A DNA stretch of 64,000 bases from an uncultured Candidatus Saccharibacteria bacterium (GCA_964577565.1 CAZNZL010000001.1:270566-334565); one strand, 5' to 3'. Positions 21,185-22,999 are shown, numbered from the stretch's first letter. A program made the numbers and translations. Notes: generated by a model not told the origin, from the letters alone.

Positions 21185-21237
21185 TTCGCTTTCGTCCTTT
21201 TGGACTCGTCAGCATGAACGCACATTCATGGAGCGAA
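21185..21237 (-). ncRNA. type III hammerhead ribozyme (HHR-1)
   Basis: Minus strand: UUCGCU-C^-CAUGAA-UGUGCG-UUCAUG-CUGACGA-GUCC-AAAA-GGAC-GAA-AGCGAA. All invariant core nucleotides are present (C3 U4 G5 A6 N7 G8 A9, G12 A13 A14, A15.1-U16.1, C17, G10.1-C11.1). Stems I and III are 6 bp and stem II is 4 bp. Confidence 0.9.
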
Positions 21238-21341
21238 TATAACAGTGTAGTGGTTACCAAGGTGGCGGGGAGTGGCATCGAACACGACGTGCTCACCACT
21301 ATGGGTTATACCTACGGCCCCGCCACCAATGCGGCTCAGGT

Positions 21342-21881
21342 TCAGCTGTGTATCTCGGGTGCGGGTTCTTCAGGAACGAAGAGCTCTGGTTGCACCCCAC
21401 TTCCCCTGTAGATGAGGATCGCTGCGTTGGGAAAGAAGCGCTTGACCACCTCTGGCAACGGACGGCCGATACGTAGCATGTCCTCGTTGCAGACGACAGC
21501 CTTCACTCGCTGCGCTTCCTCGCCAGACAGACCGGTCACCTCACGGATGTGGTCGTACACCGCTCGGTAGAAGACCTTGCTCGTGATGAACCTCTCGAGC
21601 TTATTGGCCGAAATGTGGACGAAGTGCTCGAGAAGGCGAAGCTTTAAAGGTCCGACATCGAGATGCGGGTAAATGAGGTCCCACATGAGTTCGCTTGTTT
21701 GAGATCCCGTCTCGAGGTAATCTACGAGGGCAACACGCCGAGGGGCTTGCTCCCCGTAGAGCACACGAAGCACCGAGTTTTCGTGTAGGTGCTCCATTGC
21801 GCGGCCCTGTTCCGTAACCACCAGGACGATAGGGGCAGCGTCTCTTGCGCTATCCTCTCCGTCCTCGTCCTTCTTGGACAT
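21342..21881 (-). CDS. hypothetical protein, 179 aa (cargo of M1), G+C-rich
   Basis: ATG at 21881 follows AAGGAGACACC. The ORF track's longer version (to 21935) lacks an RBS. No family recognised. A 60-nt sample (21481-21540) counts 38 G+C. Confidence 0.6.
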   Translation of the reverse strand: MSKKDEDGEDSARDAAPIVLVVTEQGRAMEHLHENSVLRVLYGEQAPRRVALVDYLETGSQTSELMWDLIYPHLDVGPLKLRLLEHFVHISANKLERFITSKVFYRAVYDHIREVTGLSGEEAQRVKAVVCNEDMLRIGRPLPEVVKRFFPNAAILIYRGSGVQPELFVPEEPAPEIHS

Positions 21882-22050
21882 GGTGTCTCCTTTGCCTAAT
21901 ACTAGAACTTTTCCAGTACGGCAACAAACCAACATAGATATTAGTTTATTGCCACACTGGAATCACTACACTGTTAAAGTACTTTAAAGCCGTTATGCCG
22001 CTTTAAAGAAAAAAGAGTGGAACACAAATTGCTCAACACCCTATACATAT

Positions 22051-22079
22051 GTTATAGCATCTTAATGCTACTTTGTCTA
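22051..22079 (-). promoter_or_regulatory. sigma70-like promoter of module M1
   Basis: TAGACA, 17 nt spacer, TATAAC. It lies 16 nt downstream of HHR-2 in RNA sense. Confidence 0.5.
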
Positions 22080-22095
22080 TATACTGTGGTAAATT

Positions 22096-22149
22096 TTCGC
22101 TTTCGTCCTTTTAGGACTCATCAGCATGAACACACATTCATGGAGCGAA
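22096..22149 (-). ncRNA. type III hammerhead ribozyme (HHR-2)
   Basis: Minus strand: UUCGCU-C^-CAUGAA-UGUGUG-UUCAUG-CUGAUGA-GUCC-UAAAA-GGAC-GAA-AGCGAA. Canonical CUGAUGA...GAAA core. Differs from HHR-1 only at N7, one loop-1 base and one extra loop-2 base. Confidence 0.9.
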
Positions 22150-22286
22150 GATGACAAGCAGGCAACAATACAGAAACAAAAGGATACACCAATTTAGGTG
22201 CGAGCATCCAAAAGTTCTATACTCTTGTCTGCTTGCCAGCTTTCGCTGCATGGTATGTTCCTTCGTGAGCTGCCCGACGACTGCTG

Positions 22287-22769
22287 TCAAAACCGAACAA
22301 GTGATGGTCTGAGCCCACCATGGGTGCCAATGACTTGGTCACCTTCACCCTTGCTGATCTTGACCTCGGTCCGCTGCTCTGTGAGCTTGAGTACCTGCTG
22401 CGTGGTCGTGTGGTAGATCGCTCCGATGACCTCACGAAGATGGAGCGAGATGATGACAGCGACGAGCTCATCGGGCACGTCCTTGGTGTGAGCGATCTTG
22501 GTCCAGATCCTGACCATGTTGTCGTACAGGTGCAGTTCGCCCAGATTGAGCGAGAGTATACGCACCTTGTCATCAGGGAATCGGCTGAGAATGTCGTTGA
22601 GCTCTGGGATCAGCCACGAGAACTCCTCCTCCGCCATCCGGCGATCATCGTCGTACCAGCGTTGATGAGCCGCTGGAAGGTTGCCGTCGGCAACTGGTCC
22701 GATCATCTCCACGTACAACACGAGGCTGCCGCAGTCGAACTCGTGCCGCCTGGTCCTAAAGCAGTGCAT
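22287..22769 (-). CDS. hypothetical protein, 160 aa (cargo of M2), G+C-rich
   Basis: ATG at 22769 is preceded by GAGGAGAAAG. Competing overlapping ORFs (22217..22573 minus, 22320..22805 plus) look like GC-driven shadow frames. No family recognised. Confidence 0.5.
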   Translation of the reverse strand: MHCFRTRRHEFDCGSLVLYVEMIGPVADGNLPAAHQRWYDDDRRMAEEEFSWLIPELNDILSRFPDDKVRILSLNLGELHLYDNMVRIWTKIAHTKDVPDELVAVIISLHLREVIGAIYHTTTQQVLKLTEQRTEVKISKGEGDQVIGTHGGLRPSLVRF

Positions 22770-22969
22770 GGTATCATCTTTCTCCTCACTGGCGAGGTGC
22801 CCTAGCTTTTGCTAGCCGTGTATTCTTAATAACACAAGGTGAGGACGCTAGGCTCTCTATGTGGTTTTAAAGCCCGGGGCCCTCACCTTATGTGTATGTC
22901 TCTTGTATATACCTGCTTGTCAAATAACAGGGGTGGAATAGATATAGATACTCAACACCCTATCTTATT

Positions 22970-22999
22970 ATTATAGCATACATTATACGATGTTGTCAA
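22970..22999 (-). promoter_or_regulatory. sigma70-like promoter of module M2
   Basis: Consensus TTGACA, 18 nt spacer, TATAAT. Confidence 0.55.

Follow-up and report, generated by a model that had tools for sequence, protein, structure and literature searches.

The subject of this study is a 64,000-nucleotide stretch of DNA from an uncultured Candidatus Saccharibacteria bacterium (GCA_964577565.1, CAZNZL010000001.1:270566-334565), hereafter the window, and two gene cassettes within it, each of which combines a protein-coding gene with a predicted long-range RNA helix and a hammerhead ribozyme. The cassettes lie consecutively on the minus strand, U1 at 22999-22096 and U2 at 22095-21185, between ndh and a convergent glycosidase gene (GH63). 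Read along the minus strand from 23300 to 20900, their parts follow in identical order. A sigma-70 promoter precedes a leader hairpin at the predicted 5' terminus, after which come a 5' arm, a structured 5' untranslated region (UTR), an open reading frame (ORF), a 3' UTR, a 3' arm complementary to the 5' arm and, beginning 2 nt past the 3' arm, a type III hammerhead. A preliminary description of this DNA had proposed two such units, and every part it listed is present where it was placed, including hammerheads with intact cores at 22149-22096 (hammerhead 1) and 21237-21185 (hammerhead 2). The features are as follows, where GC3 is the G+C content of third codon positions and MFE stands for minimum free energy.

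22970-22999, minus strand: U1 promoter, TTGACA, an 18-nt spacer and TGcTATAAT; 12/12 consensus positions, extended -10
22927-22963, minus strand: U1 leader hairpin, AUAGGGUG-UU-GAG...CUAUUCCACCCCU, found in the MFE structure of the full RNA (z = -2.7)
22912-22923, minus strand: U1 5' bracket arm, TTGACAAGCAGG, partner at 22162-22152; the consensus arm of the family
22777-22848, minus strand: U1 5' UTR element, RAGATH-10-like, holding the Shine-Dalgarno sequence GAGGAG (25.7 bits, E = 0.049)
22287-22769, minus strand: U1 cargo ORF, 160 aa, an orphan, GC3 0.73
22152-22162, minus strand: U1 3' bracket arm, CCTGCTTGTCA, pairing with the U1 5' arm
22096-22149, minus strand: hammerhead 1 (type III), intact core, Hammerhead_3 28.9 bits, predicted cleavage after C22143
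22051-22079, minus strand: U2 promoter, TAGACA, a 17-nt spacer and TGcTATAAC; weaker, read from the sequence
21982-22044, minus strand: U2 leader, hairpin AUAGGGUGUUGAG...CCACUCU followed by a second hairpin, present in the fold
21964-21977, minus strand: U2 5' bracket arm, TTAACAGTGTAGTG, partner at 21252-21240
21342-21881, minus strand: U2 cargo ORF, 179 aa, GC3 0.68
21240-21252, minus strand: U2 3' bracket arm, CACTACACTGTTA, pairing with the U2 5' arm
21185-21237, minus strand: hammerhead 2 (type III), 89% identical to hammerhead 1 over 47 nt, predicted cleavage after C21231

Structure of the two units

The two hammerheads are spaced 912 bp apart; unit lengths vary with the choice of boundaries. 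The exact leader 13-mer ATAGGGTGTTGAG occurs only twice in the window, at 22963-22951 and 22044-22032, and the U1 leader, from ~22963, starts with AUAGGGUGUUGAG as the U2 leader does. Both units had been credited with a near-consensus promoter. That holds for U1, whose promoter aligns with the TATTGACA-N17-TATGCTAtAAT conserved in other units, whereas the promoter of U2 (TAGACA-17-TATAAC) is weaker and goes unlisted by the promoter scanner because the last base of its -10 element is C, the conserved final T being missing. The sequence likeness between the units, described earlier as high across the framework, is limited to the hammerhead (47 nt, 89%) and the -10/leader region (29 nt, 79%), while the UTRs and arms have their architecture in common and not their sequence.

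When the full predicted RNAs of U1 and U2 (814-870 nt) were folded, the conserved leader formed a hairpin at the extreme 5' end of both, and the arms formed a clamp in both MFE structures, the outermost pair with a probability of 0.80-0.88 and the others with at least 0.94 (0.83 and then 1.0 in U1; 0.88 and then at least 0.94 in U2). The U1 clamp extends to ~30 imperfect base pairs. In the uncut RNA of each unit, the hammerhead three-way junction forms 2 nt beyond the clamp, and by this model an mRNA released by cleavage would end 9 nt past the clamp. The U1 leader hairpin lies at the predicted mRNA 5' end, where transcription would start. Neither hammerhead is followed by an intrinsic terminator. 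Two contigs matching the window at 100% identity (L002 and L003; Logan, SRR7082966 and SRR7082976) break inside the U1 leader, as would fit a leader that is a repeat and fragments short-read assemblies.

The hammerhead ribozymes

Both window hammerheads have an open stem III (UUCGC/GCGAA), a stem I of CAUGAA-loop-UUCAUG and a stem II of GUCC-loop-GGAC, and both retain every invariant position of the conserved core (CUGAUGAG...CGAAA in hammerhead 1 and CUGACGAG...CGAAA in hammerhead 2). The core CUGAYGAG...CGAAA is thus intact in each, with CUC as the cleavage triplet. The type III topology, in which stems I and II are closed by loops and stem III is open, is seen in the MFE structures of the uncut RNAs and in the alignment to the Hammerhead_3 model. 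A loose version of the core pattern would turn up by chance 0.05 times per window.

Stem I provides comparative evidence for the ribozyme. Among 89 distinct hammerheads of the family described below, 523 of 534 stem I positions are paired (98%), shuffled controls averaging 408 and never exceeding 426, and each position shows three to four standard pair types; variants include CACAAA/UUUGUG, CGUAAG/CUUACG and UACAGA/UCUGUA. The cleavage triplet is CUC in 78/89, CUU in 8/89 and CUA in 3/89, and G never occupies the H position. The window hammerheads are predicted to cleave themselves.

A family of units across Saccharibacteria

To our scan of one genome per species with the pattern CTGAYGAGTCCN{3,6}GGACGAAAGCG we owe 88 genome stretches with this hammerhead variant, labeled almost all as Saccharibacteria or Saccharimonadia, although the labels of metagenome-assembled genomes (MAGs) may include contamination. 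The framework is present in ~70 Saccharibacteria species. In 41 units the arms are exact over at least 10 nt, and they stand 430-1570 nt apart. Most copies read GUCUGCUUGUCA, 2 nt, then UUCGCUC, and in the 41 units the exact partner, TGACAAGCAGAC, is found upstream; the 3' arm ends ~9 nt ahead of the cleavage site. Arms that depart from the consensus have matching partners, that is, variant arms covary. Most clamps are 10-15 bp long.

The promoter (TATTGACA-N17-TATGCTAtAAT), the leader hairpin and the 5' arm align across species, and a conserved CAAGRUGAG immediately follows the 5' arm. The leader hairpin is two-tiered, and its lower stem covaries across units, the pairs including CUUUUG/CAAAAG, GUUUCG/CGAAGC, CUCG/CGAG and GGGUG/CACCC. 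When 40 units were folded one by one, 35 showed a gap of 2-6 nt between the end of the hairpin and the arm, and z averaged -1.9.

A part of the 5' UTR corresponds to RAGATH-10 (Rfam RF03147, gathering threshold 41.2 bits), which scores 60.5, 55 and 43.8 bits in three relatives (L044, L069 and L035, respectively); the U1 match, at 25.7 bits (E = 0.049), is below the threshold. U2 gave no RAGATH-10 match, and its 5' UTR has a different long hairpin. At 22790-22890 (minus strand), U1 holds three mutually complementary segments, AAGGUGAGG, CCUCACCUU and GUGAGGAG, the third of which includes the Shine-Dalgarno sequence. The MFE structure pairs AAGGUGAGG with CCUCACCUU and leaves the Shine-Dalgarno sequence free, whereas the RAGATH-10 model pairs CCUCACCUU with GUGAGGAG, and the three segments could form an ON/OFF switch of translation. 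The first of them is the CAAGRUGAG that species have in common just past the 5' arm. The conserved CAAGRUGAG, CCUCAYCUUG and GAUGAGGAG suggest a switch that would sequester the Shine-Dalgarno sequence in the RAGATH-10 subset of units.

A complete cassette also lies on a contig assigned to Mycobacterium asiaticum (NZ_LZLS01000065.1, 104 kb), at ~2700-3520 of the reverse complement, where the arm TTGACAGCAGAC and CGAGAUGAGG are followed by a RAGATH-10-like UTR, a 160-aa ORF, GUCUGCUUGUCA and a hammerhead. The contig is 61% G+C with actinobacterial-looking flanking ORFs, and local G+C falls to 0.53-0.57; the cassette could reflect transfer from an epibiont to the phylum of its host, or contamination of the assembly. 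At two loci (L024 and L060) the cassette stands directly after the 3' end of a tRNA gene (...CCA, then TATTGACA) or ~100-200 nt after the gene for transfer-messenger RNA (tmRNA), and a neighborhood of histidine kinase, response regulator and DprA recurs in six to eight loci. These may be preferred sites of insertion.

Two exact-pattern scans of IMG/VR contigs found no cassettes. The hammerhead pattern returned one unrelated phage contig with tandem hammerheads, and the pattern of the arm plus the hammerhead start returned 10 chance matches, none with a ribozyme or a 5' arm. In the phage contig (IMGVR_UViG_3300020042_006915), three consecutive hammerheads (GGUUAACUGAUGAG...) lie between small ORFs at 11800-12520 (minus strand); they are a separate example of transcript-separating ribozymes, unrelated to the Saccharibacteria framework.

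Hammerhead and terminator as alternative 3' ends

Genomes selected by their hammerheads give a biased sample, and we therefore added a ribozyme-blind census in which metagenome contigs were scanned with the leader and 5' arm (GTTGAGN{10,40}ACYTTGACAAGCAGA). This gave at least 120 stretches, and the counts that follow refer to the census matches listed. Units with both arms divide almost evenly into 21 that end in a hammerhead and 22 that do not. A terminator-like hairpin, defined as a G+C-rich stem followed by a T run, comes after the 3' arm in 17 of the 22 hammerhead-less units and after the hammerhead in only 4 of the 21 others (Fisher p = 2e-4). By cargo cluster, 14 have a hammerhead, eight a terminator and five neither. 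Among the genome loci, terminator-like hairpins follow the hammerhead in 8/94, and random 100-nt windows contain them at 6%.

Since a terminator occupies exactly the same position in other members, the ribozyme appears as the equivalent of a terminator. We conclude that the hammerhead is one interchangeable module for forming the 3' end, not the defining element of the system that the preliminary description had taken it to be. The mutual exclusivity of hammerhead and terminator is the strongest available evidence on function.

Turnover of cargo at the ndh/GH63 site

The gene order RmuC-ndh-[X]-GH63 is conserved in the genomes compared. Position X is filled by U1 and U2 in the window and by one cassette in the two closest relatives, whose ndh shares 89% identity with that of the window. 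The promoter and leader of this cassette are those seen in the window, but its UTR and 157-aa cargo are unrelated, the similarity breaking off at the 5' arm. A further contig (L022), assigned to the MAG of one of these relatives, runs from a hammerhead directly into the 3' end of GH63. In more distant relatives (ndh 71% and 69% identical), X is 585 bp and 235 bp long and the framework is absent. The earlier picture of modular cassettes with swappable, G+C-rich cargo is therefore borne out by the spread of the framework over ~70 species and by the different cargo at this one site.

What moves can be seen in the U2 cargo family. Its arms remain complementary through double substitutions at three positions (including those in L102 and L110), the pairs being TTAACAGTGTAGTG / CACTACACTGTTA, which U2 shares with L109, TTGACAGAGTAGT / ACTACTCTGTCA, and TTGAAAGAGTAGTA / TACTACTCTTTCA. 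Such compensatory changes argue for selection on base pairing and not on a sequence bound by protein. The type of leader differs between genomes within the same family while the arms stay complementary, which identifies the exchanged module as the arms, the UTR hairpins and the gene. In this family, then, the bracket arms travel with the cargo and are not part of the constant framework.

As described before, no integrase or transposase accompanies the cassettes: among 1087 neighboring ORFs, no integrase, transposase or reverse transcriptase recurs. The families matched in the window are those of a housekeeping chromosome, and no recombinase was found among the 25 listed of 79 matched families, a check that was not exhaustive. 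Given that no recombinase is associated with the cassettes, homologous recombination in the conserved flanks is the most plausible route of exchange.

Cargo genes

The U1 and U2 cargo proteins (160 aa and 179 aa) are unrelated to one another by blastp, and both genes are richer in G+C than their neighbors (GC3 0.73 and 0.68, compared with 0.42 for the long host ORFs of the window), as was claimed for each point. The sense strand of U1 shows the coding-like order GC3 > GC1 > GC2, the latter two being the values for first and second codon positions. Public gene calls instead took an antisense ORF of 161 aa within the U1 cargo (22320-22805, plus strand, in the window; 137-622 in L002 and L003), and the sense protein is consequently absent from protein databases, which may be why it looks like an orphan. 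No U1 homolog was found in a word-indexed protein search or by tblastn against metagenomes, and there was no Pfam match. The U2 cargo has nine distant homologs of 166-177 aa. Structure prediction, which had been proposed for the cargo, gave a reasonable alpha/beta model for U2 (AlphaFold pLDDT 77.7) and no match to a known fold: U2 matched nothing in Pfam, PDB sequences, Foldseek-PDB or BFVD, and tblastn against phages found no match either.

By blastp, the cargos of the 41 units fall into 28 singletons and five small families. Mean GC3 is 0.68 for cargo and 0.54 for the host; in 29 of 36 units the cargo exceeds its host (Wilcoxon p = 4e-5), and the two values are uncorrelated (r = 0.19). Even cargo families that have diverged to 30-60% identity in low-GC hosts keep a high GC3. 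Such a composition could stem from biased gene conversion, or from an external gene pool that the genomes share.

Many cargos are small membrane proteins. Pfam identifies Tad4, an inhibitor of type I Thoeris, in cargos with E-values of 4e-32 and 6.5e-24, as well as DUF2807, SPFH, a weak Rce1-like match and a DnaJ zinc-finger motif; PHROGs gives five strong matches to cargos. The Tad4-like domain is 44-50% identical to large Bacillus phage proteins. An origin of the cargo in phages of Actinobacteria, the hosts of Saccharibacteria, is unsupported, the Tad4-like matches being mainly to Bacillus phages. PADLOC, run on 34 cargos, returned nothing meaningful.

A proposed explanation

On balance, we think it probable that U1 and U2 are members of a family that spans the Saccharibacteria lineage, consisting of autonomous accessory cassettes that each carry one gene, are moron-like and reside in the core chromosome. 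In the mechanism we propose, a consensus sigma-70 promoter would start transcription straight at the leader hairpin, giving the mRNA a structured 5' end. About 5 nt further on, the 5' arm (UKACA...) would pair with the 3' arm 0.4-1.6 kb downstream, clamping the two UTRs together and turning the coding region into a closed loop. The type III hammerhead, 2 nt past the 3' arm, would then cut the mRNA from read-through RNA and leave it with a 9-nt tail beyond the clamp that ends in a 2',3'-cyclic phosphate. The slot of the hammerhead is taken by an intrinsic terminator in other members. Hairpins at the 5' terminus protect bacterial mRNAs from 5'-end-dependent decay, and the likely outcome of the whole arrangement would be an insulated, exonuclease-resistant mRNA. 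Cargo, arms and UTR hairpins would form accessory DNA that is exchanged horizontally, encoding small membrane proteins, phage-like proteins and anti-defense proteins of the Tad4 type, probably through homologous recombination in the conserved flanks.

Several observations weigh against this interpretation. The genome sample was selected on the hammerhead by its search pattern, and that pattern fixed stem II and inner stem III, for which covariation can therefore not be judged. Neither window hammerhead reaches its Rfam gathering threshold: hammerhead 1 scores 28.9 bits against the 48.5 required of Hammerhead_3, and the best score of hammerhead 2 is 20.3 bits, as type I. At the gathering threshold Rfam finds only tRNAs in the whole window, where the hammerheads surface just in E-value mode, and none of 18 related loci has a hammerhead at gathering score. 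Two hammerheads with a different stem II, in the second unit of L082 and in L110, have changed cores (UUGAUGAG and CCGAUGAG), and those of L102, L109, L110 and the second L082 unit are decayed or core-mutated, which suggests that cleavage is dispensable in some lineages; the core changes also mean that the search pattern undercounts the family and that some copies may be inactive. The five cargo clusters with neither hammerhead nor recognizable terminator must be set beside 30 census matches to the leader and 5' arm that have no 3' arm at up to one mismatch. The longest sense ORF of a unit served as its cargo ORF, a few of these being clearly in the wrong frame, and the high GC3 of cargo may come from selection or biased gene conversion rather than from foreign origin. 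The transcription starts and 3' ends of the units are predictions, and the recombination mechanism is suggested just by the breakpoints in similarity.

Our explanation might be extended to a cassette economy that works without a recombinase, a tentative idea that we consider doubtful as a whole. The framework would in addition provide portable stretches of homology, with the promoter and leader at one end and the hammerhead or terminator at the other, between which naturally competent cells could exchange the module of arms, UTRs and gene by homologous recombination. Recombination, if frequent, would account for the lasting high GC3 by way of biased gene conversion, the cargo would supply phage-type counter-defense and surface or membrane effectors for episymbiosis, and the hammerhead, as a substitute for a terminator, might expose a 5'-OH end to a 5'-3' exonuclease acting as a 'torpedo'.

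Other readings assign the long-range pairing a different purpose. The clamp may be mainly a substrate of RNase III, a processing stalk whose cutting would excise the coding loop from leader and ribozyme, with the hammerhead just aiding the stalk; the architecture is formally equal to an rRNA processing stalk, the U1 arms pair over ~30 imperfect base pairs, and an RNase III-like gene lies in the window. We regard it as unlikely that this is the clamp's main role, given that clamps of mostly 10-15 bp are short for the enzyme, that a cut would strip off the protective-looking 5' hairpin and the clamp, and that the replacement of hammerheads by terminators is left unexplained, although RNase III cutting as such is possible and compatible with the mechanism proposed above. 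A retrozyme or viroid-like circle, in which tandem hammerheads release a unit-length RNA (5'-OH and 2',3'-cyclic phosphate) whose ends the arms hold for ligation by RtcB, would suit the type III hammerheads, which are those of viroids and retrozymes, and the 912-nt RNA that U1 read-through would yield between the two cuts. Most units, however, are single and lack an upstream hammerhead, only U2 of the tandem pair being bounded on both sides, and each has its own promoter and protein-coding cargo and can exchange its hammerhead for a terminator, which makes a circle very improbable.

The remaining readings concern how the cassettes came to differ. A conserved UTR scaffold on an old, fast-evolving gene family, inherited vertically, would attribute the differences in cargo to divergence and loss, and it accords with the persistence of several cargo families across species with their arms and UTR hairpins and with the missing recombinase. 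We judge it quite improbable in view of unrelated cargo at one site between genes that are 89% identical, with similarity ending abruptly at the arm; 28 of 41 cargos moreover have no detectable relative in the set, their GC3 is decoupled from that of the host, and more distant relatives have no cassette at the site. Nor do we think the arms at all likely to be terminal inverted repeats of a DNA transposon or miniature inverted-repeat transposable element (MITE) mobilized by a transposase encoded elsewhere. The TG...CA inverted repeats around cargo of different composition and the units adjoining tRNA or tmRNA genes recall such elements, but four units of one genome have four arm sequences that keep only complementarity and UKACA, compensatory double substitutions occur inside one cargo family, no transposase recurs nearby, inspection by eye found no direct repeats beside the window arms, and the promoter and hammerhead are conserved with the repeats while lying outside them. 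The preliminary description had likened the system to integrons, and a constant framework, variable cargo and tandem cassettes do fit that logic. A site-specific system of this kind is nonetheless hardly credible: there is no IntI-type integrase near the 88 loci and no integrase among the 25 listed window families, no attC-like imperfect palindrome past the ORFs, and every cassette has its own promoter and is scattered singly instead of being arrayed at attI. Finally, the same description had named a simple local duplication with chance ribozyme-like motifs as the alternative that would undo it. U1 and U2 are adjacent with hammerheads 89% identical, but a family in ~70 species and more than 120 metagenome contigs, covariation of stem I and unrelated cargos refute it.

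Relation to known systems

None of the components of the cassettes is new in itself, be it the type III hammerhead, RAGATH-10, the moron-like unit or the stabilizing hairpin. Hammerheads between bacterial and phage genes are known, and what they do in bacteria has been an open question ever since genomes first revealed them. The cassette ribozymes have the catalytic core of type III hammerheads (Rfam RF00008), a three-helix junction with an open stem III and an NUH cleavage site, and like the intergenic hammerheads of phages (compare the tandem example in IMG/VR) they sit after ORFs, where they would separate transcripts. They differ in being a lineage-specific variant below the Rfam gathering threshold, in being fused 2 nt downstream of a long-range helix between 5' and 3' UTRs, in being interchangeable with a terminator, and in belonging to the core chromosome of Saccharibacteria and not, by our two scans, to IMG/VR contigs. 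RAGATH-10 corresponds, in the three relatives above its threshold, to the cassette segment from the 5' arm to the start codon, Shine-Dalgarno sequence included, so that part of the system was already cataloged, as an orphan motif. It stands in the catalog as an isolated motif of unknown function, whereas in the cassettes it is an optional module of a larger unit; the main text of the RAGATH paper does not discuss it.

Phage morons are alike in being single genes with their own promoter and 3'-end signal, a composition unlike that of their neighbors and cargo of accessory or anti-defense type, placed between unrelated genes. The cassettes, by contrast, lie between syntenic housekeeping genes of a bacterial chromosome and not in a prophage, and they have a leader hairpin, clamp and ribozyme where morons are without a shared RNA framework. 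With integron cassettes they share the constant framework and variable cargo, an occasional tandem arrangement and the many orphans among the cargo; they do so without integrase, attC or attI, with a promoter each, and with inverted repeats on either side of the ORF that keep their complementarity but not their sequence. Transposons with terminal inverted repeats and MITEs have a family-wide repeat consensus and a cognate transposase; here the arm sequences differ between units of one genome, and no transposase recurs among the neighboring ORFs. Processing stalks flank rRNAs and some phage early mRNAs, their flanking sequences pairing over long range. These stalks, and leaders such as those of ompA or ermC, resemble the cassettes in long-range flank pairing or in a hairpin at the extreme 5' end; the cassettes differ in adding a predicted self-cleaving ribozyme on a protein-coding unit that is horizontally exchanged.

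The architecture had been thought undescribed. This stands for the combined framework, its restriction to Saccharibacteria, the alternation of hammerhead and terminator, and the turnover of cargo, for which we found no description in a searchable literature that is incomplete, including that on hammerheads together with Saccharibacteria, TM7, Patescibacteria or the candidate phyla radiation; it does not stand for the 5' UTR element, which is RAGATH-10 in three relatives, or for intergenic hammerheads as such. The natural swap of hammerhead and terminator within one framework indicates that the ribozyme makes the mRNA 3' end. A 5'-terminal hairpin, a long-range UTR clamp and a ribozyme would together be a compact natural design for insulated, stable mRNAs, one that resembles the engineered parts of synthetic biology, and the cassettes mark a fast-turnover pool of accessory genes, with Tad4-like anti-defense domains and many orphans, in an uncultivated and host-dependent phylum. 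With hammerheads below gathering scores and occasional antisense gene calls, standard annotation misses the system.

Further framework copies and chance matches in the window

An arm scan finds four real bracket pairs in the window, while shuffled sequence gives on average ~0.85 hits, equal to ~0.4 pairs. Two belong to U1 and U2, and the others to the two ribozyme-less copies of the framework that had been reported at 8567-9698; both are bracketed and have promoters.

9005-9698, minus strand: UA, promoter 9698-9670, arms 9625-9614 and 9016-9005, no ribozyme and no intact long ORF
8567-8957, minus strand: UB, promoter 8957-8929, arms 8889-8878 and 8578-8567, no ribozyme

Rfam in E-value mode found no ribozyme of any class in either. 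Loose matches to the hammerhead core also occur at 53844-53864 (minus strand) and 60532-60561 (plus strand), and an arm-like inverted pair with one mismatch at 62527-62538 / 63794-63805; the rest of the framework is absent from all of these, which are probably due to chance. UA contains a very G+C-rich hairpin region, GGCGACUUCCGG...CCGGAAGUCACC, especially at 9160-9260 (minus strand), and may be a decayed cassette or one with non-coding cargo. UB encodes a 42-aa CxxCxGxG mini-protein at 8803-8675 (minus strand), and C-UUUUUU directly follows its 3' arm (8567-8578 and downstream, minus strand), so that the long-range clamp of this unit, taken with the U run, resembles a terminator with a 300-nt loop.

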